A stretch of DNA of 64,000 bases from Lytechinus pictus (Eukaryota), in assembly GCF_037042905.1 (NCBI RefSeq), contig NC_087250.1, positions 14,138,001-14,202,000 on the forward strand, read 5' to 3'. Position numbers and translations under genes: made by a program. The notes beneath the pieces are model-generated. The model made no database searches, was not told the DNA's origin, and was given only the letters and a program-made list of their open reading frames with translations. Below, one piece after another: positions 6,085-64,000 of the stretch; positions within the stretch are counted from its first letter, which is position 1; the number at the start of each line of letters is the position of its first letter.

Positions 6085-6551
6085 CAGTGCGTCCCAGAAA
6101 AAACGAAACCGGGATTTAGCGATGATTTATCATAACTTAATCAAAAATAAAATAGACAAATGACCTACCAATGTAAAGCTTATAATCTCCTCTTCCATCT
6201 GATATTACTTAGATTATTCCTCATTCACGCATGCGTGAGCAAAAACAATTTGAAGGAAGGATACCAAAAACTCATTTGGTGGGGGGTATATGAATTTCAA
6301 AAAGAAAATCACATGTCTTAAAAGTTCAATATGTGCTCTTTAATTTGATACCTCAATTACAGAAAATGGTCAAGAAATAACAAAGGTCTGGTTATTTGAA
6401 ATAAGGCTTGAATTTCCATAATCTCATTAAATAAACTGTTTTCACCGGTTTCCCACAGAAGCTATCGCATGGTTAACAAAAGACTTAATGCACGGCTGAT
6501 CGTAAACAAAACGGAGTGTCGAGTGAGTCTGAACGCTAGCCTGTAAAACCT
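6085..6551. mobile_element. CAGTG MITE, left half only
   Basis: Near-identical to 222-688; ends about 11 nt from the exon D splice donor. Confidence 0.8.
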
Positions 6552-9640: not shown

Positions 9641-10344
9641 AAGTTTTGTTTCTATAAATCAAAGTTATTATTATTATTATTATTACTATTATTGTTTACA
9701 CGGTAATCCCGGACTGTACACAGATGGCCCCGGATTGACAATCCGGGGTGATCTGTGTTGGATCCGTGAAGGTGTACGGGGCTTTAGACATCAGATTAAA
9801 TAATGGCAATAAAATTGAGACGGAAATCCACTACAATCTAAACGTTTCTAATATAAATGTAAAAAAAAACATGAATAATCAGCTTATTTCGTAGAATAAT
9901 AAATAATCATCCTATAAACTACATGAAAGGTTTATTTTCTCTGCTTTTAACCCATTCACACGAAATATGAATATATCAGGATTATGTGGTAGCCATTTCA
10001 GATTCTTACTTTTAAAAACTTCAATGAAATGACTTGTTTTTCAACTTAGTCATCATATCCGCGAAAACTTGCGAAATGTCAAATTCCGGAAGAAAATATT
10101 TTACAGAAGTATTCTTCAGAGTGTTGTCTTTCAACTGGACATGACAACAATTATAACTTTACATTGCCCAAAATGACTTTGGCGCATTTTGGCTTCGCCA
10201 CGGCTCACTGTGCGCTGGTGTAGCAGCAGATCTGGTTCCACCGGCGGATACGGTATCCGCTGGCAGGTATCTTTAATAACGACAAATATTGTTCTTTACT
10301 AGGAGCCATATCTTTACTCGGATAGAAATGAAAGTACAAGGAGT

Positions 10345-12835
10345 GGCAGAAAGGCTGAGCCTTATATAAAAGCCAAGCTCCAAACATGATTATAAACCAA
10401 AGTATACATAACCGATTTAAAAACAAAAGATAAAATTTAAAGGTACGTACATACATGCAATCATCAACACCTATTTACAAAAAAAAAATGGACAGACACA
10501 CACAAACACACCCACACACCCGCACCACACACATATCTAATTGAGTAAAATCATTGCACCTGTGAATAGTTTTGAAGTAAATAAAATTTCATTTTCCTTT
10601 TGAAACTATTTAATGATGGGCTTAATTTTATATCTAATGGTACGCTATTCCAGATTTTGGGACCTCTGAAAAAAATATTATTTTGAGAAACTGATGTTCT
10701 TACTAAGGGAATGTGAAAATTTTCTGCATACCTGGTTTGATATCCATGAATATCTTTATTTAACTGAAAATATTGTAAAAGAGAACTTGGTAAGATTTTT
10801 TTGTAACATAAATACATAAAAAATTGCACTATGATAAATATATAAATCAGGCATTCTCAGAGTTTTCAGGCTATGAAAGAGAGGCATGGTATGGGCAATA
10901 TATTGGCTATGTGTAACAATTCTTATTATTTTCTTCTGCAACAATAGAAGTATATCTGTATTCTGCATACTGGAACATGCCCATATGATAATACAATAAT
11001 ATAAATGTGGTAAAATTAAAGTGTTATATAGAGTCATTAGGGGTTCTTTAGAAATAAATTTCAAACTATAAAACACACCAACACGTTTAGATATTTTGTT
11101 GCAGATGACACCAGTGTGTTCCTTCCATGTAAGTTTATTGTCAATTAAGACACCTAGAAAAGTTGTTTGTGTGACCTGATCAATAAATGAGTCCTTTACT
11201 TTAATTCTTATTTGAGTAGTATCAATTTGATTCTTTGTAAATACCATAAAATGTGTTTTCTTTATATTAAGTGAAAGTTTATTATCTTCTATCCATTTGA
11301 CAATTTTATTGAATTCAGAATGAAATGTATTTTGAAGAACTGTAATGTCTTGGTGAGACATAAACACACTAGTGTCATCTGCAAATATCAATTATAATGT
11401 TTTGGAAATGTTACAGATATCATTTAGATATAAAAGAAATATTAATGGCCCTAAAATTGAACCTTGGGGCACTCCACATCTTACAATCTCTTGCTGAGAT
11501 TCATGTTCATCTAATACTACGTATTGCTTTCGATTATCTAAATAACTTTTAAACCAATCCATTACAACACCTCGAAAACCATATTTTTCCATTTTTTCAA
11601 CAAATTATGTGATCAAGAGAATCAAATGCCTTATTAAGGTCTAAAAATAATCCAATCATGATTTCTTTATTATCAAAGGCATTTGTTACTTTATGAATAA
11701 ATTCAGAAATGGCAGAAGATGTGGAGTGCCCTACTCGAAAACCAAATTGTTTGGGAGTAATAATATTGCACTTTTCCAGAAAATTATATACACGCGTGTA
11801 CACACATTTTTCTAAAATTTTTGAAAAAAAAGGGAGGACAGATATAGGCCCATAGTTTGATAATTCATCTTTTGATCCATTTTTATAAAATGGAATGACT
11901 TTCGCAATTTTAAGTTTATCTGGAACCGTGCCAGTACTCAAAGACAAATTAATTATATCACATAGTGGATAACATAATATATGAATAACAGTCTTTACCA
12001 ATGTACTGCAAACACCATCAAAACCAGGGCACTTGCCACTTTTAAACTTTGAAACAATATCAATAACTTCTTTAGATGTACATGGAGTAAAATACAAACT
12101 TGAATTATTTTTCATTACATTTACATACTGCATAAAATCACCACTGTTTTTAAACGAGGAAGACAATGTTTGGCATATATTTAGAAAAATGAATTAAAAG
12201 TATTGCATATTGCACCTTTCTCTTTAACTGTAACATCATTGCAAACAACATAGTTTGGTAGTACCTTATTTTTTACATCCCCTACCCAGCAATGTGTTGA
12301 TAATTTTCCATGTGATTTTCATGTCACCAGCAGCATTTTCAAATTTGCATTTAAAATATTCTTTCTTTGCCTTCCTAATTTCATTTGATACTTTATTTCT
12401 AAAATGCTTGTATTTTCCATAGTTCTCTGAAGTATTACATGTTAAATATTTTCTATATAAATGACATCTTTTATTCATTTTAATATATTTTAATAACTTG
12501 TCAAACCAAGGCTTGTTTTTGAATTTTCTTTTTACTATATGCCTAACAGGAAAGCATGAGTTGTTTATATCTAAGAACTTCTGCAAAAAATTATTATAAG
12601 CTATATTTGGATCTTGACTTCTAACATGCCAGGAGACACTGCTAATTTTCTGCACAAAAAGTTGTGTATTTTCTAAATTAATAATACGTTTATTGGAACT
12701 ATTCTCATTTTTAAGAAGCAATTCTAAATTTGATATGGAAAACACTGGAAAATGATCACTGATATTACAAAGCGGGATAACACCAGAAAATATTTCTTGC
12801 AAGTCATTTGTAAAAATGTTGTCTAATAAGGATGC
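10345..12835 (-). mobile_element. 5'-truncated CR1/L2-group LINE, ORF2 pseudogene (APE C-terminus + reverse transcriptase)
   Basis: Consecutive frameshifted ORFs carry LLDNIFTN, ISDHFPVF, PGFDG, PISVLPFFSKILEK, QFGFR, FLDLNKAFD, GVPQGSILGP, FADDT, FLGVLID, WNSVP. 3' UTR contains a (GT)n tract. Confidence 0.93.
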
Positions 12836-13133
12836 CGGGTTGACGCAGTTTCCTTATAATTTATTTTCCTGTTCAAACAGATGAATAAAAATGGTAGGTC
12901 ATATATAATTTTGAAGAAAATGGGTACCGTGTGCATGCATATCGAAAACCATAGCAAGAACGATATCTGCCAAAGAGATATTGGTTCTGAATCCGCCGAA
13001 GCTGGAACATGACACGCCGGTAGATAGTGTTCTTAGGACCATTCTGCCTAGCACCGGGTCCGCAGCTAAACCGGCTGCACTCACTGCCACAAATCAGCTA
13101 AACCGCGCCCACGCACCGGTTATGACATCGCAG

Positions 13134-13518
13134 CAGTGTTTCCACTTTAAAGGAAATTACCCGAATTCCGGAAAATCTGGATCATTTTCAGATAATTTTT
13201 GGGTAATGAAAGAATTCCAGGAAATTAAGGAAATTACGGTGAAACAAAATTTAAGTAGTAAGTTCTAATTCATGTTGTATTTAAAGATTTGTTTACCTCG
13301 ATACAAAGCTCAAAATATTCCGCTCGCGCTCCGCACTTGTAATTTTGTTCCTATTTTTAAAAAGCGCGTGAACCAAAAAATAAATCAAATTCCTTGATAT
13401 TGGTCACTTAGACCAAATTCAGGTTCGCTGTTTGTCCATTTTTTTATATTCGAACTTGAAAATCGCAGGAAATGTCTATTAATTTCGGAAAATTTGTTTT
13501 AGATCTGTGGAAACACTG
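13134..13518. mobile_element. hAT-type MITE with 8-bp TSD
   Basis: CAGTGTTTCCAC...GTGGAAACACTG, flanked by CATCGCAG at 13126-13133 and 13519-13526. Confidence 0.9.
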
Positions 13519-20770: not shown

Positions 20771-23575
20771 CAGGACAACTACCCCCTGGACAATCACCCC
20801 CTGGACAACTACCCCCCGGACAATTACCCCCCCGAGGACAATTACCCCCCGGACAATTACCCCCCGAGGACAATTACCCCCCGGACAATTACCCCCCGGA
20901 CAACTACCCCCCGAGGACAATTACCCCCGGACAATTACCCCCCGGACAACTACCCCCCGAGGACAATTACCCCCCGGACAACTACCCCCCGAGGACAATT
21001 ACCCCCCGGAAAAACTACCCCCCGGACAATTACCCCCCGGAAAACTACCCCCGGACAATTACCCCCTAGACAAAGGGAGTGCACAGAGTCATACGTCGGC
21101 CTTACGTTTGACGTAAGAAGTACTCAAGACATTCTCGAGTATCTTGGAATCAAACGTACGCCGTAAGAAAGCTGTAAAATTTAGCTCCATCCATAGGCGG
21201 ATCCAGGGGGGGGGGCGAGGGGCCCGCCCTCCCCCCCCCCTATCGGCAGAGCAAAAAAATGAAGAAAAAAAGGGGGAAAGGAAGAAAAAAAGAAAAAGAA
21301 GGGGAAAGAAAGGAGGAAAAATAAGAGTTAAAATAAGAGGGAGACGAGTGAAAAAAAAAGGTCAGGGGATGTCTTGGAAAATGATAAAAAGATATATTTC
21401 ATGTCACTTTATTAATTTTTTCGCTCGCGCTTCGGGCTCGCATAGCCTGTTCGATGAGATACACATCTTGCTAAATAGGCTGATATGTAGCTTAAAATGT
21501 CAAGTTTTGAAGTCGATATTACAAAGCATATTTCAGCTCGGACATTATTCATAATTTTGTTTGATTTACAAACTGATTTTTAAGTGCTCTGTTTAATGTC
21601 CGTTTTATGGTGTGAATATAACTTGCAGCTTGCGCTATGCGCTCGCATTATTTGATTTGCCAAATTATATAACAAACTACTTAAAACCCCCCTTTTATGA
21701 CAGTTTACCATAAATTTCGTCTCACGATTTGCGCTCGCATTTTTGTTAAAAATATATCAACTCACAAATCCTATTCATGATTACAAAAGTGCTTAAAATA
21801 TCCAGTTTTCAGGCCTCAGTGTCAACACACTTTACTTTTACACTCATTTAGGCTTATTACATTAATAAATATGATAATAAAATTTTCATGAATTCTTAAT
21901 GACTAAATTGTCCCTTTTCGGAAAAGAATATCGACAATATCACAGTTTCATATGTTTCATATCGCACTCAGGAAGAGGAATAAGAAAGTTGTCATCATTT
22001 TCATATGATGACGTAATGTCCATAGACCTAGAATGTCCAGGTCCTAGGTCAAAATAACAATGAAGATATCAGCTCGCGCTTCACACTCGCATAATTTATT
22101 AAGTGCTTTCCACATCCACTTCACAATTTTCCTACACAATGCTTTAGATAGTGCTCAAATTCACCATTTTCATACCGGAATATCAAGTATTTTCCGCCCA
22201 CGCTTCGCGCTTGCATTGCTTTTTCGATGAGATTAATATCTTGCTCAATATAGGCTTATATGGAGCTTAAAATATCAAGTTTCGAATTCGATATACAAAA
22301 CATATTTCATCTCGGATATCGAGCTTTCATTATTTTTAAATTTACAAATTGATTTTTCAAGTGCTCTGTAAAATGTCTGTTTCATGGTCTAAATATTAAT
22401 ATTTTCAGCTCACGGTGCTCGGTCGCATTATTTGATTTGCATAGGCCTACTTCTTTATAAATTCTTACCGTCCTTAAAATGCACCTTAAACGAATCGTAT
22501 ACTATCATGATTGCCAATTTGTATAGAAAAAACACTGTATTTGATTATGTCATATTGTTTACAATTTAGTAAATTTGGTACTTAATTTCCTTCTTTAATG
22601 TTTAATTGCTTTCACCCAAGAATAATACACACAAAAACACCTTGTAATTTACAAGGCGTTCTTGTGTGTATTATCTTTGCTTTAAGTTTTTCAGCTTACT
22701 GTATTAAGTTATAAAGCCACATCTTAATCTGGAATGTGCACCAATTGTTTCATAATTCTTAGCTTCTTGTTAGTTGAACTGTTAAAAAAAAAACCTGATT
22801 TATAGGTCTACTTGACAGTGTTAGTGTTCATAGTTGCGTTATCGACTTTTAATATTTCTACCTATAAAGGTGTTTTTTTACGTTTTATCTATTTGCCTGA
22901 TTTCTTACCTGAAATTAAACCCAAAATAAATATTTAAAAAAATCAGATCAGTTGGAATCAGAGATATTCAGCATTTGTAATTATTATGACTCATCACGTA
23001 CAATTGTTCTATGCAAACTTAGAATGAGGGCCAGTTTACAAATTTTCTGATGTATATAATTATGCATAGCCAAACGGGAGGTTTCGGGTGCAAGCCCCCC
23101 CCCCCCCATTTTTCATGATGCAGAAGGCGCCGCTAAACAAAAAAGGAAAAAAGAAGAAAGTGAGAGAACAGGAGAAAGAGCAATATAAAAGAGAAAGAAA
23201 AAGTTATTAACGTAAGATGAAGTAGAAAATATTTCGGAAACCTGTGCCACCGACCAAAACTTACAATGGGTCCCGCTTAATTCTAACATTGATGCTGGAG
23301 AGAAGGGGGGATTTTCTGAAGGTAATTGTCTGGGGGGTAATTGCCCGGGGGTAATTGTCCGTGGGTAATTGTCCGGGGGGTAATTGTCCGGGGGGTAATT
23401 GTCCTCGGGGGGTAGTTGTCCGGGGGGTAATTGTCCGGGGGTAATTGTCCTCGGGGGGTACTTGTCCTCGGGGGGTAATTGTCCGGGGGGTAATTGTCCT
23501 CGGGGGGTAATTATCCGGGGGGTAGTTGTCCGGGGGGGGGGGGGTGATTGTCCAGGGGGTAGTTGTCCTAGAACC
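20771..23575. mobile_element. Foldback element with inverted 15/18-bp tandem arms (GGACAATTACCCCCC)
   Basis: Left arm 20771-21070, inverted right arm 23320-23575 ending ...GTCCTAGAACC. No TSD detected. Confidence 0.8.
21192..22480 (+). mobile_element. GGCGGATCC-terminal hAT-like non-autonomous element (truncated), nested in the foldback
   Basis: Starts CATAGGCGGATCCAGGGG, carries repeated GCTCGCGCTTCGCGCTCGC-like motifs, and is an inverted homologue of 36180-37069. Confidence 0.7.
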
Positions 23576-25338
23576 ATCCACGATCACATCATCCTCGGTC
23601 ACGCAGTGACCATGGCCACATACATAGCATGGAAGGAGGATGAAAGCAGCCTGCGAGGCGACTCAAGTGTGCCGAGTGAAAAAGCTTCTAAAAAAGAAGA
23701 CAACTCGACACACGGGCACGGTAAATGCATCGACCGTAGCCCACTCCACACGAGGAAGCGGCGGAGACGCCCGCAAGCTTGACCCACATAGAGGGCAGTC
23801 TATTGAATAGACTGTTTGAGCTCGACCGATGGCCTGGCGGCGGACAGTTTGGTGTGAACTCGCCGACCCGGCACGGTGGGTGCGCCCAGGAAATAGGCAT
23901 AGAAATGCCGACAGAAAAAGCCTGGGGCTTGAAACAAGCCTGGACGCACGTACACCGCCGACAATCTAATGAGATATACGGCTGTTTCTTTCCACCGAAA
24001 TGATGCTTACCCGACCAGGAAAGACTCGGGGAACAAGCTGTGCATGTCAACAGGAGGGGTATCTGGCATATAAATAGCCGATTCCCTCCGGGCGTTCGGT
24101 GCGGGTGCTGCCGGCGGGGTCCGGGGGGAAGACCGATGATGGCAGCTCGGGCAGGGCTCTCACGAGCCGCCCGAATACGAGACAAACAGGTTAGAAAATA
24201 ACCATAATGCACCGGGTGGTGAAGGCATAGCGATTATTAAGTATAGGAGAACTATTAATTGCCGTGACATTCAGATCCGATATTTATGCTCATAAGCTCG
24301 GCAGAGCTACGAAATAGTGAGACAAACCGCTGAGTGGTGATGGTGCTAATATCGGAGTCGCCCTCACTACAGCGGCGATCGCTGGAGGACGGGTGTATGT
24401 ACTAGCCCTGGCTCTAACCTTACAATGAAGAGTAGGAGTCAAAAGTAAAGACAGGGCACCCTTACTTTCGTATAGAAAGTGAGGTTCAGGCCAAAAGCTG
24501 ACGGTCCCGTCGCCTTGGCGTACGGTCCGCGGGCGTGATAGGTTGCCCTCTCAAAAACAGCCAAACATTCTCATGAGAGAAGGAAGGCATGCGGTATGTT
24601 AGAAATTCTTTCCTCCAATCTACAGGCCCGCCTAGGGGGTAGAATGGAGAGAGTTACCGCTGAAAGAGCCGTCGCCGTAAGCGATGCCCGGTCAAACTGT
24701 GAAGCTTGACGTAGAGGGCGAATTCGGGAGTACCTGCATATTAATGGGGGATACCCATGCAGGTGAACTCGCCGACGGCTCCCCGGAGTGCGGGCTGGCG
24801 GGAGAAACTCAATCCGCTCAATGCCCGACACCGGCAATAAGACCGACAGAAAGCAGCCAAGCGGCTGCAGCGTCCAACCAGCGACATACGGGGGCTTGCC
24901 GACTTGCTGGGTGAGACCCATACGTCAGCAGCACCTGTGCATATCGTGAAATCACTCGTGCGGGTGAAAGGGCAGGCAATTTCAAAGAAAAGGGCGGCTG
25001 GTGCGAGGCTGCTGATAAGCCCGGCCGTCGCGTAGCGGCGGTCTATAATGATGGAGAACACGAGGGTAAGAACCCGTAATGCTCGGGACGTGTTGATGCA
25101 ACCTGTAAGGATGCAACCTCCAGCCGTCGGTCACCGAGAGCTTGCCGACATGTTGGCTTGAAAGCCGTATGTCGGAAGCACCTGCATAGAAACGGGGTCA
25201 CCGTGTAGGTGAACAGCGTTTCAATAAAAGCCCGGCGTGAGAGGGCAGGTGACTGCTTGAACCGCACGGTGCTTAGCACGGCGGCTGAAGCTGACATGAA
25301 GCGTGGGGGAATTTACCCGCACTGCTCGTGGGCGTGTG
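23576..25338 (-). mobile_element. GC-rich degenerate retroelement body, probably part of the DIRS element (continues at 32245-33400)
   Basis: Abrupt GC rise. Diverged repeats are shared across the insertion (cggtgcttagcacggcggctgaagctgaca at ~25267 vs cggtgcttgacacggcggttttagctgaca at ~32446). The TSD shows the two flanks were contiguous. Assignment to DIRS is inference from proximity. Confidence 0.45.
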
Positions 25339-27780
25339 CCCGGGGGGGGGGGGGGCACTCAGTATATAATGCATAGTGGGTATGTGCCGCGGAGGGGACC
25401 CCCATTTTTACACTCAAATTTCCGCTCCAAGGCATAGCATTTCCTTCTTATCGAGAAAAAAAAAAAAAAGAAATTCGTTCCAAAGCTTCGCATATTTTTC
25501 GTATGTAACGCCATTCCGGTCGCATTGATTTGCTACAAGGAGCTGCAATTTGGTGAAAAGCGGCCGTAGAGCGCTTTTCGACCATCGCCTTAGTCCAGAT
25601 TGGACCTTGTTGTTTGGAAGTGCTTTTTCCCAAAGCTAACATAGAGGGCACATGTCTCCCACTCTCTAATCAGCGCCAATCCACTCATCTTCCCTCCCCA
25701 ACAAGGTCCAGTACAAAACTTTGCTGTACCAGAAAAGCTAGGCATCAATCAAACAAGTTACACGGTAGGGGGTCAGGTGCCCTAGTCTCACACACCAAAC
25801 AAGACACATTTTTACCCAAAACAACTTCACCTCAAACAGGGTGAAAAATGCAAAGTTGTGTTGTTGTTTTTTACACTGTAAACATAAGGCTCCGTGTTCA
25901 TGCACTTAAAAAATATCTATTCAGCGCCTTCCTCTCTCGCCAAATGATTCCACCCATGAACCAAGTATCAAAGTTTGAATAAGTAGACTACACCAGTCAC
26001 AAGGAGGCAACAGCTGGTAAACATCTCTGGCTCAGGCAGCATCAACAGATCCTGGCCCCCACCCCCATCGTGGTCAATGGGCAGTGGAGGGTCAGGGGAA
26101 ACCAGACCAGTGGCCTACAGGTACGACTAGTCTCTTGTACCAAACTTTTGCCTCCACTCAAATACAAGTTTACCCCCAAGGACGATGAAAATACACAGAT
26201 GTGACCGATGTTCTACAGAATAGACATATACCACCATGATAATTTGATATTCACATTTTGTTCTATTGAAATGTTTTTTCTCTTACCCAATGATTTCATC
26301 CGTGGAATAAGTATTACAGTTTATAAGACTAGACTACGAAAACCAGGACCCTGTTGCTTCCATGAAATGACCTCCTGACCTCCATGATAAGGGGCAGTCA
26401 GTGGTTGTTGTATATGGAGCTATATATAGCATCATGGTTTGGACATGGTTTGATATGCATGTGTTTGCAGTGTATTCCATACTATGGACATCCATGTCCA
26501 TACCCAGCTAACTATATATAATAACATTCATGAAAGATCCTAGAAATGCTTTCAAAAGAAATTTTTAAGAACATTTGTATAACATTAATGAAACAATATT
26601 CCCCTGATGTTAAACATGAAATAAACGTTAATATTATGATCATCCACTCACTATTTCTTTTGTATTTTATTTATATGAAATATGAAATATTTTTATTTTA
26701 TCGTCATTGTCATGTGAAACAAAGTCTCATTCCTCCCTGAACTTCCATTATTTTAACATTTTGTGGTTCAAGCAAGGGGATCCTAATTGTCGAATTCGTA
26801 AAAATTGAAATATTGTATTATTCAAACAATAAAAAGCAAAAAAAATAGTGAGTGAGTGACATCATCGACTCTCTCATTTGCATATTACTGAGTTGAGCAT
26901 AGAACTGTTTTGTGAAAAATAAGCGAAACTTTAAAATGTCATAACTTTTTTATTTTACATCCGATTTTGATTAAGTTTTCAGCGTTATTCATGTTTGAGT
27001 TCTCTATTTATTCAAATCAACCTTATTCTGGGGTGGACTTGACCTTTAAGATTTGAGAGGTATAAGGCCGTTCATTGGATAGAAGAGATTTCGCAAGCGC
27101 ACGCAAGCTTTGTTACACTTAAATACAAGTTAAAAATATGGTATAACTCGAAAAAAATATCAACATCATTTCGCATTTGTAAACACCAGATGAAGGCGGA
27201 AAGTGCATTGCAATTTTTATAACAATAATGGTGATGTCTATGAAGTATAAGACATGTCTGAAATGATCAAAAGTATAGTTTTGCATCATCATGATTCATC
27301 TGTCGGGCCTGGTGCCCTCCTGTTGCTGCCCCGTTCATATCCAAATTATATTATAAAAACGAAAAAAAAAATGAGTTCAATATTTTTTTTCAAAATTTTG
27401 GGAAAACAAAATAAAAAACATTTTTCAAGAATGTTGAACTAAAACATTTTGAGAACATATTTTCATAACTTTTATAGAACCTTTAATGCTATTATCATTA
27501 AATTTTACCAAAGTTTTAAGATAGTATTTTTTATATCTATTTACCGTAATTATAGAGATATTATAGTAAAATTTTATTTTGTTTCTAAAAATTATGATAT
27601 CATAAAAACATCAAAATATGAATGTTTGTTGTACAATTCATTAGTACTTCAGGAAAACATTAGAAAACCTTTTTTTTTTCAAAAATGTTTAGTTATTACA
27701 AACATATATATATATTATCATAATTTTGTGGGAAAGTTTGTTATTGTCACACCATGGCATGATAATTATTCGTTTCTTAA

Positions 27781-28363
27781 AGGACAAGTCCACCCCATAA
27801 AAAGTTGATTTGAATAAAAAGAGAAAAAATCCAACAAGAATAATACTGAAAAATTAAATCAAAATCAGAAAGTTATGACATTTTTAAGTCTCGCTTTATA
27901 ATTTTCACAAAACAGTTATATTCACATCTTGGACAGGTATGCAAATGAGGGGACTGATGACATCACTCACTATTTCTTTTGTATTTTATTATATGAAATA
28001 TTGAATATTCCAATTATATCCCTGTTGTCCTGTGAAACAAAGTTTTGTTCCTCCCTGAACACGTGGTATTACCTTTGTTTTAACAATTTATGGTTCGATC
28101 AATTCGGTCCTTATTGTCAAATCTGTAAAAATTGAAATACATTTTATAATTCAAACAATATCATACAAAAAATGGTGAGTGAGGGACATCAACTCTCTCA
28201 TTTGCATGTCCGAGTCGTGCATATAACTGTTTTGTGAAAAATAATGGAAACTTCGTAACTTTCTCATTTTACTTCAGATTTTGATGAAATTTTCACCGTT
28301 GTGCTTGTTAGAGTTTTTCGCTATTTATAAAAATTCAAAAATTTTCTAGGGTGTACTTGTCCT
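27781..28363. mobile_element. TTAA-flanked AGG...CCT MITE (Kolobok-like)
   Basis: TTAA|AGGACAAGTCCACCCC ... GGGTGTACTTGTCCT|TTAA. Other copies at ~26640-27046 (partial), ~59740-60340, 61234-61826, ~62001-62239 (partial) and ~62751-63343. Confidence 0.85.
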
Positions 28364-28879
28364 TTAAAAATGATATCATAAAAATGTCAAAATTAGGATG
28401 TTTCTGATTCATTTTTCAAACATTTTTTTTTTACATTGGAAAAGCATTTCTAAAAATAAGTTTTGTTAAAATATTTGAGAAGCATAATCATAATCATGAC
28501 ATTTCGAGAATGATGTTTTATGCTATTGTCATATTCTACCAACATTATTTTTTTCACATAATGTATAACATTATAAAAACGATGATAGTAAAATGAATTT
28601 ATTTCTTAAATGATCAGATGATGTTATATCATAAATATGTATTAAAACAATATTTTTTCTCTTTTTTAGTGAAAATATTATAAAGCAGTTTCAGTTATGA
28701 CATTCTAAGAACGTTTGATGTCATTGATATGATACTAGTATTACAACCTTTTAAAACTAGCACATCAATGATGTGGAGTTCATCCAGCATCTCGCAACGA
28801 TATTTAACACAATTTCAGCCCAGTTGACGTCACTGTAGTGAATTATATTGGTGACTCAAATTGAGGATATAGAATTGAA

Positions 28880-29970
28880 ATTAATGAAGAAATTACATAG
28901 AAGCTTTTTTGTGATCTATGAATAAATTTTATATAAATTAGCATGAATAATTTTCTAGTCAACATTTCTAAACTCTGTGTAGAACCTTGGTGAACCTCAT
29001 GTAGCTCTCAGATTGAACAAAAATAATCAACAAATAAATAAGTTATTTTTTTTAGTTGAAAATATATAAATAACTAAGCATATTTCATGAGTTTCAAAAT
29101 TCTGTGTTGAAATTTTGTATCACCACCTAAAGCGATCATATAAAGCAAAGAAAATTAAAATTGATCAACAAATGATGTACAGGTTTGGTGAACCTCATGC
29201 AGATCTACCAGATGGAGAAAAAAAATCAAAATCGGTAAACAAATAAGAAGACGCATTTCCTGTTGATTCATGAATAAATTTCGCATAAATTAGCATAAAA
29301 TTTTTCCTAGTCAAAATTTCAAAATTCTGTGTAGAAATTTGGTGAACCTCATGAAGTGCTACCAAAAGGAAGCCGAAATAGGTCAACAAATAACGAAGGA
29401 GAAGCATTTTTTTGTGAATTTTGAAAAATGCGCATAAATTAGCATATTTAATGAGTTTCAAAATTCTGTGTAGAAGGTTTGAATCCCCCACCTAATGCTA
29501 TCATATTAAAAGCAAACAGAATTAAAATCAGACTTGAAATGACGAAGCGGGCAGCGTTTTGAAATTCAGTCAACAAATAAAGAAGAGGCATTTTCTGTGA
29601 TTTATGAATTTCGCATAAGTTAGCATAAATAATTTCTACTCCGGCCAAATTTCAAAATTTTGTGTAGAAGTTTGGTGACCTTCATGAAGCTCTACCAGAT
29701 GGAAGCAAACAATTCAAAATCGGTCAACTAATTAAGAAGAAGCATTTTTTTGTGAATTTTTAAAAATGCGCATAAATTAGCATATTTAATGAGTTTCAAA
29801 ATTCTATGAAGAAGTTTTGAATCCTCTACCTAGTGCTATCATATAAAGCAAACAGAATTGATTCCGGACTAGAAATGGCGAAGAAGAAGCATTTTGAAAT
29901 TGTGGACGGACGCCACGCCACGGCATAAGCTCGAGTCATCTAGCCCTTCGGGCCGGATGAGTTAAAAATC
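28880..29970 (+). mobile_element. Helentron-associated/pearl-type element with tandem core repeats
   Basis: Repeated tttcaaaattctgtgtagaa..ggtgaacctcatg cores (dimeric, ~310-bp period), then GGACGGACG and the hairpin tcatctagcccttcgggccggatga followed by an A-run. Confidence 0.6.
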
Positions 29971-32736
29971 ATAGATCCCAATAACTTTATCAAAATGTCA
30001 GCAAAATACAAAAAAATGTTAAAATTATACTACTAAAAATAAGGATGTTTCTAATACATTTTAAAATATTTTTGGAAATTATATTTCAAAAATGTTTTGT
30101 TGAACGGTTGATGTTATTGTCATAATATTCTTACAACATTTTTAAAATGTTTATTTTACATCAAATGTATAACCTTACAAAAATGTTAGTAGTATTATCA
30201 AGTTTCTGAAAAAATTATATTCATATCATCATAAAACATTGAAAAACATGTTAATGATACATTTAATTAACGCTTTTGAAAAATATTAGGAATTTTTTTT
30301 TTCAAGAACGTTAAGTCAAAATGATACATAAACATATAGTTTCATAACATTTATTATCACATCCAATGTACGTACATGTATATAACATTATAAAATTGTA
30401 TATCTGTTTTGTTTCTCAACAATTTATGTTAAAATTATCAGGATGTTTCTAATATATTTTTTAAAGTTAACATTTTGGAAAACACTTGAAAACATCCAAG
30501 AATGCTTTGTTGAGATGTTGTAAAACCATATTTCATATCGATCATTTAATTTCAAGTATTCTAACAACATTTTCAAAATGCTATTTTTACATCCAATTCA
30601 TGTACATGTAGATGTCAATAAAATGTTATTGTGTTCCTATCAAAATGTTAATTCAATATGCAAAAACGGCAAAATTATCATGTATCTACTATATTTAAGA
30701 AAATCATAACATTATCAAAAATGTTTTGTCGAAATATTTTGAAAACAAACATTCATGACTTTTTTATCATCATCATAGTCATAACATCGAACGTTTGAAA
30801 AAAAAAATATTCACATTAATTATGTAACATTATAAAAACGTTAGAAAAATATCATTTGTGTCTTAAGAATGTTTTTTTTTCATCAACTATGGGTAAAGAT
30901 CTATGTAACATTTAGGAAAATATATCTGCTTGGCATCATGATATTAACGTTTATTTCATGTTTAACATCAGGGGAATATTGTTTCATTAATGTTATACAA
31001 ATGTTCTTAAAAATTTCTTTTGAGAGCATTTCTAGGATCTTTCATGAATGTTATTATATATAGTTAGCTGGGTATGGACATGGATGTCCATAGTATGGAA
31101 TACACTGCAAACACATGCATATCAAACCATGTCCAAACCATGATGCTATATATAGCTCCATATACAAAAACCACTGACTGCCCCTTATCATGGAGGTCAG
31201 GAGGTCATTTCATGGAAGCAACAGGGTCCTGGTTTTCGTAGTCTAGTCTTATAAACTGTAATACTTATTCCACGGATGAAATCATTGGGTAAGAGAAAAA
31301 ACATTTCAATAGAATAAAATGTGAATATCAAATTATCATGGTGGTATATGTCTATTCTGTAGAACATCGGTCACATCTGTGTATTTTCATCGTCCTTGGG
31401 GGTAAACTTGTATTTGAGTGGAGGCAAAAGTTTGGTACAAGAGACTAGTCGTACCTGTAGGCCACTGGTCTGGTTTCCCCTGACCATCCACTGCCCATTG
31501 ACCACGATGGGGGTGGGGGCCAGGATCTGTTGATGCTGCCTGAGCCAGAGATGTTTACCAGCTGTTGCCTCCTTGTGACTGGTGTAGTCTACTTATTCAA
31601 ACTTTGATACTTGGTTCATGGGTGGAATCATTTGGCGAGAGAGGAAGGCGCTGAATAGATATTTTTTTAAGTGCATGAACACGGAGCCTTATGTTTACAG
31701 TGTAAAAAACAACAACACAACTTTGCATTTTTCACCCTGTTTGAGGTGAAGTTGTTTTGGGTAAAAATGTGTCTTGTTTGGTGTGTGAGACTAGGGCACC
31801 TGACCCCCTACCGTGTAACTTGTTTGATTGATGCCTAGCTTTTCTGGTACAGCAAAGTTTTGTACTGGACCTTGTTGGGGAGGGAAGATGAGTGGATTGG
31901 CGCTGATTAGAGAGTGGGAGACATGTGCCCTCTATGTTAGCTTTGGGAAAAAGCACTTCCAAACAACAAGGTCCAATCTGGACTACCATCGCCTAAGCGA
32001 GAGCGCACCCGGCGGAGGCCGCGCTAGCTGCGTCATGCACGATAGCCCGTTCCATAGGGATGCATACGCACTCACAGAGATACGGAGATCCGTTCCGAGG
32101 ACCCCCGTTTTCACAAACATTTGTAGTTCCGAAGCCCGTTCCGAGGACCCTCCTTTTTACAATAAGCCCGCTCCAAGGCCCCCGTTTTTTGCCTCGCCCG
32201 CGGCACACCCCTACCACTTTTTTGGTCGAGTGCCCCCCCCCGGGGGGCGTGTGAAGCAACATGAGAGTTGCGACGCCTGACCCACAATTATCGGGAGTCT
32301 GGTGACATAATGGGGGGCGATGCCCGTATGTCGATAACACCTGTGTATTAGCGGGAATTTTCCTTGCAGGTGCGTGAGCCGGCGAATCATGAAATTGCCG
32401 GTGACTCTCCGAGGTGTGAGATGGCGAATGTCTGCTTTACCTGCCCGGTGCTTGACACGGCGGTTTTAGCTGACAGAGACCATGAGGATAAAAATCCGTG
32501 ATGCTCGAGGGCGTTCTGTTGCAACATGAAGTTACGACGCCTGGCCATCGGCACAATAATTAGAAAGAAAGGTCTGCCCGCGAAGCGGGGTTAGCAACCT
32601 AGACTTTCTTCTTCTTCCTCTTCTATGCGGCCCCCGCCGGGGGGGCAGGAGAGGGCACAAGAGACAGGGGGACGTGATGTCTTGCATGAGAAAAGTCACC
32701 CAAATCTGATCAAGCCGGTTAGGCACATGAACGCTA

Positions 32737-33214
32737 ATTCCACGGTTCCACCTTTAAGGGCACGTGGACGCGATTCCACGGTTCCACCCTGATCAGATAA
32801 TCGTGAGATTGACGGGGTCGAGCTCATGTGTCTCTAGCGACTAGGGGCTGGTAGCCCTTTGCTAATGCTCCCTGAAGGAGACTGACAAAGCATCGAGCCT
32901 AGTCTGTGCCGGGAAAAGAGTCCCATGCTCTTAACCCGGACTTGTTGGACCCGATAGCCGGTGGGTCAAGCAGCCCTGGAGGAGTGAGGTTTTCTATACT
33001 AGTAAAACACTCCCCAAGATAGGTTCAGGTCCCGTCGAGGGAGCCTTGGCTAGCACCTTTCAGGCACGTGGCCGCAGCGCCACGGTTCCACCCTAAAACG
33101 CTCGGGCACGTGGGCGCGGTTCCACGGTTCCACCCTCTTGGGCACGTGGACGCAACTCCACGGTTCCACCCTCCTTTTTCCAGGGCACGTGGACGCAAAC
33201 CACGGTTCCACCCT
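32737..33214 (+). repeat. Clustered ~32-bp repeat GGCACGTGG-N7/8-CCACGGTTCCACCCT
   Basis: Copies at ~32759, 33063, 33105, 33141 and 33184, plus a partial copy at ~32740. Confidence 0.8.
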
Positions 33215-34086
33215 TTATAGAGCCCATCGCAAAGGGTCTCACTCTCTTGCCCTCATACTCACCGCCGCTGATCACGGGAACAAAATACCATGTCTGGTTC
33301 TCTCCCAGCGGCAGGTTTGGAGTCATCAAGAGACGAGTCAAAAGAGCTCATCTATACCTGGTAAGTTCTTAGCCTGAAAGAACAAAAGGAGGGTCGAAAA
33401 CAGAGAGGGGGCGGAGGGGTGGGTGGGCAAGAAAGGTGACAAAGCAAGATCCTTTTCAGAAAATATCAGTAATGAAAACAGGACCGACTTCTTAAACATG
33501 AGATCAAACAAAGTTAAGAAGCTGAAGTGAGAAAAAAAAACTAATATTTTTTTTTCTTTTTTTCCCCAACCAATTACACGTATACCTGACGTTAATTAAT
33601 TAAAAACGGAAAGCGTCTAAGTCCAAGACGAAGAGCAGGATCAGCAAAGAAAAACAAAACACAAGTTTTTTTTTTTTTTTGACAAAGGTCAAAATAAATA
33701 AGTAAAGGAGCTGATCTGAAAGGAAGAAGTAAAAACTTACTTCCCTTAAACTGGAAAGCCGAAAACTCATTAGCGAAAACAAAGGATGCTAATAGAGAAC
33801 AGGGGGGGCTTCCCAAAAAATGTAAGAATTTTTTTTTTAAGACAATAAGTCTAAAAAAAAAATTCAATACAAAATAATTATTAAAACCAAATAATAATTA
33901 AACAATTAACCAATTAGTTAATTAAACAATTAATTAATTCATTAATTAAATCAATCAATGGAAGCGAATTCTCAACATTTTTATTGAGAAAATTTTCTGA
34001 CAGTTTAAAAGCAATTACAAAAAAGAAGTTACGCTAAATGCCTATCTAAAAACCACAACTAGTATAATAAAATGAGACACTGAGCC

Positions 34087-34340
34087 GTCGGGCATGGTGG
34101 CTCAATGGTAAAGCGTCTGTCTCATGAACGGGAGGTCGTGGATTCGATCTTCGGCCGAGTCATACCAAAGACTTATAAAATAAATGGGACCTTCTGCCTT
34201 CTTGCTAGGCGCTCAGCATTTAGAAGGGAGAAGGGTAATAATAACATATTATATTATGCAGGGTTCGCGGGTAGAGCAGTTTCCTAACTGAAGTGGCTAC
34301 TCTAGGTAAATAAATCATTATTTTTATATATCATTATTAT
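34087..34340 (+). mobile_element. tRNA-derived SINE (Meta-domain-like body)
   Basis: A box TGGCTCAATGG, B box GATTCGATC, body GGCCGAGTCATACCAAAGAC..TGCTAGGCGCTCAGCA, AATAAA and (TTA)n tail. Confidence 0.8.
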
Positions 34341-50761: not shown

Positions 50762-51960
50762 TTCGAGATCAATTGTATGGAGAGGACCGTAGCAAGGTCA
50801 ATACCCGTCTTCATCAAGCTTTCGGGCACATGCCCTTCATCAGGATCTAAACCAATAAAATACAAAATATAGGCCTACTAATAACAATGGTAAATACAAT
50901 GCAATACATAACGGAGATAAGCAATTGTAGTCCATAAATAATAACCAATTATACATGCAAGGTAATGGTAAGTCAATATGTAACGAAGTATAGAATATAT
51001 AGTTACCGTAGAGTCCGTAAGTATAGTGTGTTGTTTACAGTAAAGTTAAGTGTGAAGTGAGGTCAGGTTTGCGGGGGTGAGTTCATTAAAGGGTGAAGAG
51101 GGTCGTTTATTGGTCGGCGTTTATACCACGTGGTCTTAATGTTTTGAGTTTGTGTATCCAATGAGATTCCCTTTTCAAGATGGTGTCGTGTTTCTTGTTT
51201 TTTACTATTTCGATGGCAGTGATGTTAATGTTGTGTACTGTATGCCCGGGAAGGTTGAAATGTATGGTGTATGGGAGGGTTTTGCTGTTGGGTTTGTTTT
51301 TGTTGTAATTGGTTACTTCTGATCTAGTGTTATTAAGTCGTGTGTATAGTGTTGTTTCAGTCTTTCCGACGTATTGCATGTTGCATTTAGTGCATATTAC
51401 GAGGTAGATGACCCATGAGGATTTGCAGTTTATGTGATCGCGTATGTTGAATTTTTGTCTAGTGACTGAACTTGTGAATGTCGTTGTTTCTTGGATGTGA
51501 TGGTGGAGTTAACATTTTTTTGCTTTGCATTTGTAGAACCCTAGCTCTATGTTGACATGTCTGTGATAAAGGTGCATGTCGTGTAACTGGTGTTATGATT
51601 ATTTGTTTGGTTGTTTCTGTTGTGATTTTCTGTTTCCATTTGTGGTGATTTAGCGTTTACTAGTAAGTCGCGTAGTGATCTATTTCAGCGGAAGGATGTC
51701 ATCGGGGCTCTGTGAAAGATGGTTTGCAGTGTGTCACTCTGTTCGATGAGTGGATAATGTTTATGGATGATGGAGGGTATTGTTGATGTGCCTGGTGTGT
51801 ATGTGACAGAGAAGTGGATATTCGTAGAAGTTGTTTCTTGTTTTTGATGAGAAGTTGTTCTCGAGGTATGATGGAGGCTTTTTGGATCTGTTCCGTTACC
51901 AAAGTGGTGTCGTACTGACGGCGTGTGAGGTGTGTCTCTAGTTTGGTCAGATGGTACTTT
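50762..51960 (-). mobile_element. 5'-truncated Penelope-like element (linker + GIY-YIG endonuclease) inserted in (TA)n
   Basis: Frameshifted reading LTRRQY..VTYTP..PMTSFR..LRDLLV..CKSSWVIYLVICTKCNMQYVGKTETTLYTRLN..HF..RESHWIHKLKTLRPRGIN, bounded by TA microsatellites. Confidence 0.88.
50813..50846 (-). ncRNA. Minimal hammerhead ribozyme motif in the Penelope terminal repeat
   Basis: Minus strand: ATC-CTGATGA-AGGGCATGTGCCC-GAAA-GCTT-GAT, giving the core boxes, stem II GGGCA/TGCCC and palindromic AAGCTT. Confidence 0.65.
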
Positions 51961-58642: not shown

Positions 58643-59454
58643 TAGTCCAGATTGGACCTTGTTGTTTGGAAGTGCCTTTTCCCAAAGCTAACATAGAGGG
58701 CACATGTCTCCCAATCTCTAATCAGCGCCAATCCACTCATCTTCCCTCCCCAACAAGGTCCAGTACAAAACTTTGCTGTACCAGAAAAGCTAGGCATCAA
58801 TCAAACAAGTTACACGGTAGGGGGTCAGGTGCCCTAGTCTCACACACCAAACAAGACACATTTTTACCCGAAACAACTTCACCTCAAACAGGGTGAAAAA
58901 TGTAAAGTTGTTTTTTCTTTTTACACTGTAAACATAAGGCTCCGTGTTCATGCACTTAAAAAATATCTATTCATCGCCTTCCTCTCTCGCCAAATGATTC
59001 CACCCATGAACCAAGTATCAAAGTTTGAATAAGTAGACTACACCAGTCACAAGGAGGCAACAGCTGGTAAACATCTCTGGCTCAGGCAGCGATCAACGGA
59101 TCCTGGCCCCCACCCCCATCGTGGTCAATGGGCAGTGGAGGGTCAGGGGAAACCAGACCAGTGGCCTACAGGTACGACTAGTCTCTTGTACCAAACTTTT
59201 GCCTCCACTCAAATACAAGTTTACCCCCAAGGACGATGAAAATACACAGATGTGACCGATGTTCTACAGAATAGACATATACCGCCATGATAATTTGATA
59301 TTCACATTTTGTTCTATTGAAATGTTTTTTCTCTTACCCAATGATTTCATCCGTGGAATAAGTATTACAGCTTATAAGACTAGACTACGAAAACCAGGAC
59401 CCTGTTGCTTCCATGAAATGACCTCCTGACCTCCATGATAAGGGGCAGTCAGTG
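58643..59454 (+). repeat. Third copy of the long TIR (equals 25591-26403)
   Basis: Similarity begins exactly at TAGTCCAGATTGGACC and is near-identical for ~810 bp. Confidence 0.92.
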
Positions 59455-59519
59455 TAATGCAATAGCATAGAGCTAAGTTGTTTCAAATGTATTGATGAGT
59501 TTGTTACTCCATAATTGGA

Positions 59520-59700
59520 TACGGGTTACTTCCAATTCGTCTAATGCCTATTCGTCCATTTGCAAACTGTCTATTTGATCTACCATCAGTTCGTCCTCTC
59601 ACCACATGGTCTACTTTAATCTAGTTTAATGTCATTTCGTCTAATGACCAGTTGGTCAATAGCAATTTAGTCCATTTACCATTTGGTCTAATTAGACTAA
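59520..59700 (+). repeat. Degenerate ~15-bp periodic array (CCATTTCGTCTAAT-like)
   Basis: ttcgtctaat, ttcgtccatt, tggtctact and ttggtctaat recur at roughly 15-16-nt spacing. Confidence 0.55.
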
Positions 59701-61419
59701 TTTTTTGTGCAAAATGAATGAAAATAAAATGGAAATTAAAGGTCAAGTCCACCTCAGAAAAATATTGATTAGAATCAATAGAGAAAAATCAGACAAGCAC
59801 AATGCTGAAAATTTTATCAAAATCGGATGTAAAATAAGAAAGTTATGACATTTAAAAGTTCGCTTACCGGTATTTTTCACAAAATAGTTATATGAACGAG
59901 TCAGTTACATCCAAATGAGAGAGTTGATGATGTCACTCACTCACTATTTCTTTTGTTTTTTATTGTTTGAATTATACAATATTTCATTTTTTTACGAAAT
60001 TGACAATTAGGACCTCCTTGCATGCCTGAACCACAAAATGTTCAAATAATGGAATTCCACGTGTTCAGGGAGGAATGAAACTTCATTTCACATGACAATG
60101 ACGAGAAAATAAATTTATTTCATATAATAAAGTACAATAGAAATAGAGAGTGAGTGATGTCATCAGTTCACTCATTTGCATACCAACCGAGATGTGCGGC
60201 ATATAACTGTTTTGTGAAATGAAGTGAAACTTAAAAATGTCATAACTTCTTATTTCACATCCGATTTTGATGATATTTTCAGTGTTATGCTTGTTGGATT
60301 TTTCTCTTTTTATTTAAATCAAGTTTTCGTTGGGATGGACTAGACTAAATCAAATGGGTTTTTTTTTCAAGAAATCGAAAATTATGAAAATTCCGGCAAG
60401 TACCAATTGTGTTCAAATTTGACAAACTTCATCCTTCCTTGAGCTATTCAATTTGATGGACAATTGTATATTAAGTTAGCAAATAGATCTAACAGTAACA
60501 GTTTAATAAAAATTGAAAATATAATTGTTATTGTTTAATATTCTAAAAATGTTGAGAAAATGTTGCAATGGTATCTTACTAATGTAACAAGTGAATGTTT
60601 CCAAAATTTGAATGTGCTTTCAAGGTGAAGTTGATCTCTACAACTTTATCCCATAAAATATTTTATCATATTCTAATCCTATCCTTATCTTAAACCTATC
60701 ATTCTGTATCTACACCTATCCACTGAAACCCGTCATTGATTCCTATATATGAGACCACTCTCCGATACCTGGCAGAATACATTTAATAACAATTTTTCTA
60801 TATATATACATGTACCTTGAAAATTTCACCAATGAATGATCTATTTAATGAATTAATGATATGTTAATCAGGCTCCATACTTTTGTGAAACTTTTAACAG
60901 GTACGTAAACATAAGATTTCACGTATATATAAGCTGAAATTTTGGTCATTCTCTGGCTAATGAATATGTCCAGATGGCCAAATGTTTTCCCAACGTTGAA
61001 TGTTTCCCAACGTTGGCATAATGTAATTGTTCGAACAACCCAGGAACAAACTACATTCCAACGTTGTACCATCGTCACAATTACTATTTTCACTGTTAAA
61101 GTCAAGATGTTGTTGTTTGATTTTTAGCGGCGCTCTCATACAAAAAAAAGTATATGCGCCAATCAAAATTATTCTATCATATAAAAAAAAAAATTATTTC
61201 ATTATTTTCAGTAGATTTGGCCTTATAATTTAAAGGACAAGTCCACCCCAACAAAAAGCTGATTGGAATAGAAAGAGAAAAATCAAACAAACATAACACT
61301 GAAAATTTCATCAAAATCGGATGTAAAATAAGAAAGTTATAACATTTTAAAGTTTCGCTTAATTTTTCAAAACAGTTATATGCACATCCTGGTCGGCATG
61401 CAAATGAGGGGACCGATGA

Positions 61420-64000
61420 CATCATCCACTCACTATTTCTTTTGTATTTTATTATATGAAATATGAAATATTTTGATTTTCTCGTCATTGTCATGTGACA
61501 TAAAGTCTCATTCCTCCCTGAACTTCCATTATTTTAACATTTTGTGGTTCAAGCAAGGGGATCCTAATTGTCGAATTCGTAAAAATTGAAATATTGTATT
61601 ATTCAAACAATAAAAAGCAAAAGAAATAGTGAGTGAGTGACATCATCGACTCTCTCATTTGCATATCACTGAGTTGAGCATAGAACTGGTTTGTGAAAAA
61701 TAAGCGAAACTTTAAAATGTCATAACTTTCTTATTTTACATCCGATTTTTATGAAGTTTTCAGCGTTATTCATGTTTGAGTTCTCTATTTATTCAAATCA
61801 ACCTTTTTCTGGGGTGGACTTGACCTTTAAGATTTGAGAGGTATAAGGCCGTTCATTGGATAGAAGAGATTTCGCAAGCGCACGCATGCTTTGTTACACT
61901 TAAATACAAGTAAAAAATATGGTATAACTCGAACAAAATATCAACATCATTTCGCATTTGTAAACACCAGATGAAGGCGGAAAGTGCAGTGCAATTTTTG
62001 AAATATTGTATTATTCAAACAATAAAAAGCAAAAGAAATAGTGAGTGAGTGACATCATCGACTCTCTCATTTGCGTATCACTGAGTTGAGCATAGAACTG
62101 TTTTGTGAAAAATAAGCGAAACTTTAAAATGTCATAACTTTCTTATTTTACATCCGATTTTTATGAAGTTTTCAGCGTTATTCATGTTTGAGTTCTCTAT
62201 TTATTCAAATCAACCTTTTTCTGGGGTGGACTTGACCTTTAAGATTTGAGAGGTATAAGGCCGTTCATTGGATAGAAGAGATTTCGCAAGCGCACGCAAG
62301 CTTTGTTACACTTAAATACAAGTCAAAAATATGGTATAACTCGATCAAAATATCAACATCATTTCGCATTTGTAAACACCAGATGAAAGCGGAAAGTGCA
62401 GTGCAATTTTTATAACAATAATGGTGATGTCTAAGAAGTATAAGACATGTCTTATAAATCATTAAATTTTACCAAAGTTTTAAGATAGTATTTTTTTATA
62501 TCTATTTACCGTAATTATCATGATTATAGAGATATTATAGTAAAATGTTATTTTGTTTCTTAAAATTATGATATCATAAAAACACCAAAATATGAATGTT
62601 TGTTGTACAATTCATTAGTACTTCAGGAAAACATTAGAAAACCTTTTTTTTCAAAAATGTTTAGTTATTAAAAAAATATATATATATTATCATAATTTTG
62701 TGGGAAAGTTTGTTGTCACACCCATGGCATGATAATTATTTGTGTCTTAAATGACAAGTCCACCCCATAAAAAGTTGATTTGAATAAAAAGAGAAAAAAT
62801 CCAACAAGAATAATACTGAAAAATTAAATCAAAATCAGATGCAAAATAAGAAAGTTATGACATTTTTAAGTCTCGCCTTATAATTTTCACAAAACAGTTA
62901 TATTCACATCCTGGACAGGTATGCAAATGAGGGGACTGATGACATCACTCACTATTTCTTTTGTAATTTATTATATGAAATATTGAATATTCCAATTTTA
63001 TCCCTGTTGTCCTGTGAAACAAAGTTTTGTTCCTCCCTGAACATATGGTATTAGCTTTGTTTTAAAATTTATGGTTCGATCAATTCGGTCCTTATTGTCA
63101 AATCTGTAAAAATTGAAATACATTTTATAATTCAAACAATATCATACAAAAAATGGAGAGTGAGGGACATCAACTCTCTCATTTGCATGTCTGAGTCGTG
63201 CATATAACTGTTTTGTGAAAAATAATGGAAACTTTGTAACTTTCTCATTTTACTTCAGATTTTGATGAAATTTTCACCGTTGTGCTTGTTAGAGTTTTTC
63301 GCTATTTGTAAAAATCAACAATTTTCTGGGGTGGACTTGTCCTTTAAAAATGATATCATAAAAATGTCAAAATTAGGATGTTTCTGATTCATTTTTCAAA
63401 CATTTTTTTTAAACATTGGAAAAGCTTTTCTAAAAATAAGTTTTTTTTTAATATTTGAGAAGCATAATTATAATCATGACATTTCGAGAATGATGTTTTA
63501 TGTTATAGTCATATTCTACCAACATATATTTTTTTCACATAATGTATAACATTATAAAAACGATGATAGTAAAATGAATTTATTTCTTAAAAGATCAGAT
63601 GATGTTATATCATAAATATGTATTAAAACAATATTTTCTCTCTTTTTTTAGTGAAAATACTATAAAGCAGTTTCAGTTATGACATTCTTAGAACATTTGA
63701 TGTCATTGATATGATACTAGTATTACAACCTTTTAAAACTAGCACATCAATGATGTGGAGCTCATCCAGCATCTCGCAACGATATTTAACACAATTTTAA
63801 TTTCAGCCCAGTTGACGTCACTGTAGTGAATTATATTGGTGACATAAATTGAGGATATAGAATTGAAATTGATGAAGAAATTACATAGAAGCTTTTTTGT
63901 GATCTATGAATAAATTTTATCATAAATTAGCATAAATAATTTTCTAGTCAAAATTTCTAAACTCTGTGTAGAACCTTGGTGAACCTCATGTAGCTCTCAG
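61420..64000 (+). repeat. Direct duplicate of 26640-29010, with an internal ~413-bp tandem duplication
   Basis: Colinear and near-identical from catccactcactatttc to ggtgaacctcatgtagctctcag. 61588-62000 is repeated at 62001-62410. About 235 bp present at 27260-27492 is missing here. Confidence 0.92.

Follow-up and report, generated by a model that had tools for sequence, protein, structure and literature searches.

A non-autonomous transposon family of Lytechinus pictus with long terminal inverted repeats, probably lengthened in one copy by copying from the opposite end

The window analyzed here is a stretch of 64,000 nucleotides from Lytechinus pictus (NCBI RefSeq assembly GCF_037042905.1, contig NC_087250.1, positions 14,138,001 to 14,202,000 of the forward strand), and all coordinates below count from its first letter. 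It contains 2 insertions of a transposable element with long terminal inverted repeats (TIRs), which we refer to as copy 1 and copy 2. Copy 1 was located at 25591..31985, with exact coordinates and TAG...CTA ends, and copy 2 was found by self-comparison to start at 58643 and to extend beyond the end of the window. The inverted repeats, a target site duplication (TSD) combined with an empty site, a terminus shared by the 2 copies and the lack of a transposase gene support a non-autonomous cut-and-paste element. The features of copy 1 and of the miniature inverted-repeat transposable element (MITE) that hosts it were as follows.

25330..25338, forward strand: GGGCGTGTG, the 9-bp target duplication that precedes the host MITE and recurs after it at 32245-32253
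25339..25590, unstranded: left part of the host MITE (poly-G/CACTC ends), the last 9 bases of which are the left TSD of copy 1
25582..25590, forward strand: left TSD CCATCGCCT of copy 1
25591..26403, forward strand: left core TIR of 813 bp, which begins with TAG and is common to copy 2
25774..25996, forward strand: best-conserved part of internal unit 1, with motifs at 25783 (+) and 25990 (-)
26118..26346, forward strand: best-conserved part of internal unit 2, with motifs at 26128 (+) and 26336 (-)
26404..26640, forward strand: 237-bp arm extension, an inverted copy of 30935-31171 that copy 2 lacks at its left end and that in copy 1 meets the middle of a Kolobok-like MITE
26639..27049, unstranded: Kolobok-like MITE with its left end cut, terminating in TTAA (intact at 61230-61830 in copy 2)
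27050..27776, unstranded: spacer together with a degenerate, AT-rich matrix of repeats (GC content of 24% in 27260-27773), of which 27260-27493 has no counterpart in copy 2
27777..28367, unstranded: second Kolobok-like MITE (TTAA...TTAA), common to copy 2
28749..29967, unstranded: nested high-copy element with tandem cores of 139 to 198 bp and high summed depth in public sequencing runs
29975..30934, unstranded: degenerate, AT-rich matrix of repeats with 22% GC, extending into the arm segment over its inner 130 bp
30935..31171, reverse strand: 237-bp segment native to the right end, the presumed template of the left extension
31172..31985, reverse strand: right core TIR of 814 bp, which ends with CTA
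31986..31994, forward strand: right TSD CCATCGCCT of copy 1
31995..32244, unstranded: right part of the host MITE

The arms of copy 1, at 25591-26640 (1050 bp) and 30935-31985 (1051 bp), were reverse complements with 99.43% identity and differed at 6 positions, namely 5 substitutions and one 1-bp indel. The 9-bp TSD was perfect on both sides, and the probability that an exact 9-mer occurs at a fixed place by chance was 6.7e-6, given the local base composition. When each end was shifted by up to 3 bp (49 shifts), 25591/31985 was the sole boundary that combined a flanking duplication with perfect terminal inversion. Readings of the boundary that give a TSD of 7, 8 or 10 bp were rejected because terminal symmetry was lost; the 10-bp version, ACCATCGCCT, has to count the last base of the right arm, an A, as part of the target. 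A sequence-only reading of the same DNA had proposed near-perfect inverted arms and a perfect 9-bp TSD, and both proposals were confirmed.

The target of copy 1 was a MITE of 502 bp, which could be reconstructed from the 2 flanks (25339-25590 plus 31995-32244) and carries a 9-bp duplication of its own, in agreement with the earlier claim that the element splits a MITE. Contigs from 4 of the 16 listed public runs (X1, X2, X3 and X13) aligned to 25490-30934; small shares were not taken as evidence. Three contigs from run X1 departed from the window at 25590 and continued into a sequence that, as judged by eye, resembled the right flank. These contigs represent a paralogous empty site, whereas no orthologous empty allele of copy 1 was seen in the public-run contigs examined. 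It was also noted that the host MITE and copy 1 are situated in a GC-rich block (about 50%) at 23570-33400, which includes a 36-bp tandem repeat at 33104-33214. None of the 16 open reading frames (ORFs) in this block had a Pfam match, and it may be what is left of a larger element that has decayed.

The visible part of copy 2 consisted of 3 segments.

58643..59454, forward strand: left core TIR, 98.3% identical to that of copy 1, with a flank that ends in CGCACTATG
59455..61420, unstranded: left interior of about 1.97 kb that is not in copy 1, with fragments of repeats, another Kolobok-like MITE (59736-60341) and the left portion that the truncated MITE of copy 1 has lost
61421..64000, unstranded: interior in common with copy 1, with a 412-bp tandem duplication, up to the end of the window

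Copy 2 was placed in a flank unrelated to that of copy 1 and started at the same TAGTCC base, which is to say that both left ends in the window (2/2) begin with TAGTCC, and no further termini were seen. The sequence-only reading would have been refuted by other copies that do not begin at TAGTCC, and the second insertion indicates that the element did move as a unit. The left arms of the 2 copies shared positions 1-813 only, with 11 substitutions in 811 aligned bases. Beyond this point, the 1.97-kb segment without a counterpart in copy 1 was followed by a shared interior with 2.6% to 2.9% substitutions (57 of 2,090 sites). Both copies contained the same 2 Kolobok-like MITEs and the beginning of the same tandem-core element in the same places, and these passengers must therefore have travelled with the element and predate the split of the copies. 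The 9-mer CGCACTATG at 58634-58642 occurred only once in the window and is the predicted TSD of copy 2; it has no consensus in common with CCATCGCCT, and both are richer in GC than the window. The left arm of copy 2 and the right arm of copy 1 aligned over 811 bases with 3 gaps of 1 to 2 bp and none close to 10 bp.

Since the arm match to copy 2 stops at position 813 and public contigs end or diverge at 26400-26403, the family terminal repeat appears to be about 813 bp, with the 1.05-kb arms a peculiarity of copy 1. The 1.05-kb arms described in the sequence-only reading are thus real in copy 1 but do not represent the TIR of the family. Among the pieces listed, record 1 of X1 ended at 26403 and record 21 of X2 at 26400, while record 9 of X13 was aligned up to 26403 and continued with 143 unaligned letters. 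The contigs with the 237-bp segment (X1 record 2 and X2 record 18) ceased to align at 26640, and the T of the right arm was seen in X2 at 26407.

The extra 237 bp in the left arm of copy 1 are probably right-end interior that was copied onto the left end, as judged from their composition and placement. The inner 130 bp of the arm had a GC content of 22%, the same as in the adjoining right interior, compared to 44% in the core. At the inner end, the extension and the first Kolobok-like MITE overlapped by 2 bp (AT). The MITE that starts abruptly at 26639 in copy 1 was complete in copy 2, with TTAA at both ends of 61230-61830, so that at this junction it is copy 1 that is derived. TTAA is the sequence that Kolobok elements duplicate as their TSD (PMC9587614). 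The left arms of the 2 copies differed at 11 of 811 sites and the interiors at 57 of 2,090 sites (p = 0.028, or p = 0.08 with the right arm), a weak hint that arms may have been homogenized. All 3 A/G arm differences were CpG sites in copy 2, as judged by eye, and 34% of A follow C. An older copy 2 accounts for most of this without conversion.

The core of the arm itself contained an old direct duplication with an offset of about 345 bp, identified by local alignment of 25774-25996 to 26118-26346. The alignment spanned 237 columns, with 148 identities, 67 mismatches and 22 gap columns (62% identical), and its score of 87 was reached by none of 1,000 shuffles (null 23 +/- 3). Each unit was flanked by an inverted pair of TAGTCT-N7-YAAAC motifs located about 208 bp apart. 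This motif, which was defined post hoc, occurred 11 times in the window, in all cases within the 3 arms. The TAGTCT hexamer was found 5 times compared to an expectation of 0.69 (2 of 2,000 shuffles), a count that is inflated by the duplication, and the count in one unit alone was matched by 35 of 2,000 shuffles. Furthermore, the tip of the arm contained a 5-bp stem formed by arm positions 3-7 and 11-15 (0.3% of shuffles) and an inverted 12-bp motif at arm positions 11-22 and 109-120. The tip stem, the 12-bp motif and the TAGTCT pairs are candidate transposase sites. A third unit of about 345 bp was missing from the initial 180 bp, from the extension and from copy 2 beyond position 813, and Tandem Repeats Finder identified no arrays in the arms, the only array in this region being the 36-bp repeat outside the element.

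None of the 59 ORFs of at least 45 amino acids in copy 1, the longest of which was 121 amino acids, and none of the 31 ORFs in the visible part of copy 2 matched a Pfam family at E <= 0.01, although the same scan did match LINE (long interspersed nuclear element) and GIY-YIG remnants elsewhere in the window. The earlier statement that no transposase can be recognized is consistent with this result. No tRNA or Rfam family was found inside the element. A frame of 73 amino acids in the arm (25983-26201) was compared to 1.84 billion representative proteins and gave 2 weak matches, to a cysteine-rich repeat protein and to a repetitive, spurious-looking protein, neither of which is a transposase, and these were dismissed as noise; the remaining arm frames were covered by the Pfam scan only. 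The interior had previously been described as a patchwork, which agrees with the Kolobok-like MITEs, the AT-rich repeats and the nested tandem-core element; the accompanying label "pearl-type" for 28749..29967 is presumed. The suggestion of a pack-type element was not borne out, as neither Pfam nor Rfam revealed a gene fragment, in a screen that would miss short exons or non-coding host DNA, and the load instead consists of nested repeats in an AT-rich matrix. The interior may be a captured stretch of genomic DNA rich in repeats, or it may be a degenerated centre in which insertions accumulated.

We consider it likely, with a probability of about 0.78, that the 2 insertions belong to a multi-copy, non-autonomous cut-and-paste family with symmetric TIRs of about 813 bp that is mobilized in trans by a transposase with a 9-bp stagger, and that the left end of copy 1 was repaired from the right end with an overshoot of 237 bp. 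According to this model, a DDE transposase encoded elsewhere would bind both ends, excise the unit and insert it by a 9-bp staggered cut, and the internal TAGTCT motifs may serve as extra binding sites. A break close to the left end, in the line leading to copy 1, would have been repaired from a right end. The copied tract would have extended 237 bp beyond the core repeat before it joined the left interior again within the Kolobok-like MITE at the 2-bp overlap, which would have deleted about 1.97 kb and yielded arms of 1.05 kb, either before or after the insertion.

The contig depths are in line with this model. In run X1, the depth was 7.17 for the core, 3.6 for the 237-bp segment and 2.6 to 3.3 for the interior, and this ratio of about 2:1:1 is expected if the 237-bp segment is normally one-sided. 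The core contigs in X2 and X3, which were about 93% to 98% identical to the arm of copy 1, had depths of 755 to 1156, compared to 8 to 184 in the non-nested interior bins, and this suggests that in a related organism many arms enclose different interiors. The summed depth of the subterminal bin 25672-25853 in these 2 runs exceeded that of the inner core bins by a factor of about 3 to 6, hinting at shorter and commoner relatives with the same outer arm.

A number of observations speak against the model or weaken its support. The extension does not look younger than the core, unlike what is predicted for very recent copying: the 2 arms disagree at 3 of 237 extension sites and at 2 of 813 core sites (Fisher p = 0.079). 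Only one TSD was observed for the family, the right end of copy 2 being located beyond the window, and no further termini or TSDs were visible among the listed contigs. The contig figures refer to the rows listed, which are 32 of 104,407 pieces, 24 of 3,607 loose ends and 15 of 1,221 joints, and contig depth is not equal to copy number. The depths in X1 and X13 were low, one interior contig in X13 (8.12) was deeper than the core contig in the same run (6.25), no listed piece from X3 covers 26403, and there were no loose ends before 25591 among those listed.

The similar divergence of extension and core would also be explained if arms of 1.05 kb were the true family TIR, a simple deletion having removed the left interior of copy 1 and an independent loss or replacement having affected the inner 237 bp of the left arm in copy 2. 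With 2 copies to compare, a plain deletion from an ancestor with a two-sided 237-bp segment, combined with a separate replacement in copy 2, is compatible with the data, and a 959-nt contig (X2 record 18) carries the core joined to the 237-bp segment, which implies that the join is old. We nevertheless regard this explanation as quite unlikely, because it takes 2 events, record 9 of X13 diverges at 26403, the depth ratio of core to 237-bp segment in X1 is about 2:1, and the inner 130 bp are ordinary interior matrix. No listed contig spans 25490-30934, which is what would be seen if the structure were an assembly artefact (a fold-back read or a misjoin) or if a shorter repeat had inserted twice, independently and in opposite orientations. 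Both are highly improbable, given that the arms differ at 6 positions, that a single 9-bp duplication brackets the whole unit, that a paralogous empty site was found and that copy 2 joins the same arm to the same interior, pieces of which were recovered at 98% to 100% identity in X1 and X13.

The remaining alternatives concern the transposase that would move the same element. Academ elements have TAG termini and a small tip hairpin, which the ends of the present element would fit, and the AcademH lineage is said to go back to Kojima in 2020. A TSD of 9 or 10 bp has been reported for this lineage of the Academ superfamily (PMC10045372; see also PMC10799480), and copy 1, as one insertion, falls within this range, but it differs in that no transposase or helicase remnant was matched by Pfam. 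A partner of the AcademH type is the leading candidate, at roughly even odds; one TSD was seen and no autonomous partner was found. A Mutator-type transposase (MuDR/Phantom/Foldback) is a tentative and rather unlikely candidate, for which the internal duplication of the arms, a foldback-like trait, the TSD within 8 to 10 bp and the long TIRs all speak. Mutator ends usually start with G or C rather than TAG, and the arms contain 2 diverged units of about 345 bp instead of tandem arrays of short units. Comparable elements are Tetris, with long TIRs, no ORFs, TSDs of 8 to 10 bp and a suggested Mutator affiliation (PMC4079207), and Tm1, with composite TIRs and mostly 9-bp TSDs (PMC3169594), but Galileo illustrates that a foldback structure does not fix the superfamily (PMC4079207, PMC3573991). 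The TAG...CTA ends, the 9-bp TSD and the TIRs of several hundred bases are also shared with the hATm group of the hAT superfamily, for which TAG...CTA ends, TSDs of 8 or 9 bp and TIRs of 417 and 575 bp in 2 families have been described (PMC6004678), and 3 of the 28 hATm ends listed in its supplement start with TAGAC, close to TAGTC. However, 24 of these 28 ends start with TAGGGT and none with TAGTC, and the present end, TAGTCCA, agrees with the TAGGGTG terminus at only 3 of 7 bases. In Repbase, non-autonomous elements are assigned by the length of the TSD and by terminal bases 1-11, where no more than one mismatch is allowed (PMC4455052), whereas the best ungapped match of the first 11 bases to the listed hATm ends, made by eye, was 5 of 11, and membership in this group is improbable. 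A superfamily other than AcademH, Mutator/foldback or hATm-like is likewise improbable.

A further, bolder proposal is that the family is of the AcademH type and that its arms were built stepwise, by tandem duplication of TAG-ended mini-modules of about 208 bp followed by repeated end-over-end copying of the kind that copy 1 would display, with identical ends retained and the interior swapped between subfamilies. We consider this unlikely. If true, such a family would be a vehicle for moving kilobases of arbitrary genomic DNA.

The sequence-only reading had called the element young. The perfect TSD suggests that copy 1 inserted fairly recently, but arm identity is no clean clock and the interiors of the 2 copies differ by 2.7%. 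Since end-to-end copying resets the identity of the arms, the value of 99.4% is unsafe as a measure of age.

The 2 copies provide a snapshot of how inverted arms may grow: with a nested MITE that is truncated in one of them and complete in the other, one can read where the junction lies, which segment was lost and in which direction the change went. It follows that arm length and arm identity in a single copy can mislead both classification and dating. If the partner is AcademH, the symmetric ends and the paired TAGTCT motifs would offer candidate sites for binding by a transposase that has been little studied. Long-TIR non-autonomous DNA transposons are a known class, within which this family appears to be new. 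No description of it was found in the literature covered, which excluded Repbase Reports, Dfam and most subscription journals, and a catalogued family is therefore possible. The exact terminal 20-mer and subterminal 21-mer had no matches in metagenome contigs, and the terminal 19-mer had none in viral contigs.

Several other repeats were identified in the window. Two arrays with 15-bp units at 4186-6116 were inverted relative to each other (4204-4405 vs. 6069-5869, 88%) and form a foldback-like structure of about 1.9 kb, and inverted arrays with units of 15 to 17 bp at 20783-23560 bracketed about 2.3 kb. Broken LINE pieces on the reverse strand at 7647-12853 contained Pfam matches to reverse transcriptase and endonuclease as well as an ORF1-like frame of 255 amino acids, and Penelope-like remnants were located at 51107-53195, with a GIY-YIG match at 51110-51508. 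Two further TIR elements had 8-bp TSDs: one of 2385 bp at 54458-56842 with CAT ends and the TSD TGTGCGTA, and one of 385 bp at 13134-13518 with CAG ends and the TSD CATCGCAG, which we take to be hAT-like. An Rfam tRNA match at 34091-34162 (33.3 bits), which was not called by ARAGORN, is probably the head of a tRNA-derived short interspersed nuclear element.

Among known systems, Pack-MULEs likewise combine a non-autonomous long-TIR shell with a 9-bp TSD and non-transposase DNA inside, but in the element described here Pfam detected no host gene fragment and the interior consists of nested transposons and AT-rich repeats. Long TIRs, a variable non-coding middle and a TSD within 8 to 10 bp are shared with Tetris and Tm1, whereas the asymmetric 7-bp terminal motifs of Tm1 are not present in this family; the sea urchin TU elements are also cited among the foldback-type comparators (PMC4079207). 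In its structural workings, the element appears, by analogy, to resemble the non-coding long-TIR copies of Galileo. The 2T/2RT copies of Galileo in Drosophila mojavensis, a member of the P superfamily, have TIRs near 1 kb that contain repeats of about 210 bp and have recruited internal sequence, with the longest TIRs in non-coding copies (PMC3573991). They differ from the present family in that Galileo, as described in the same source, has 7-bp flanking sequences, whereas the L. pictus element has a 9-bp TSD, TAG ends and internal units that are old, with 62% identical columns.

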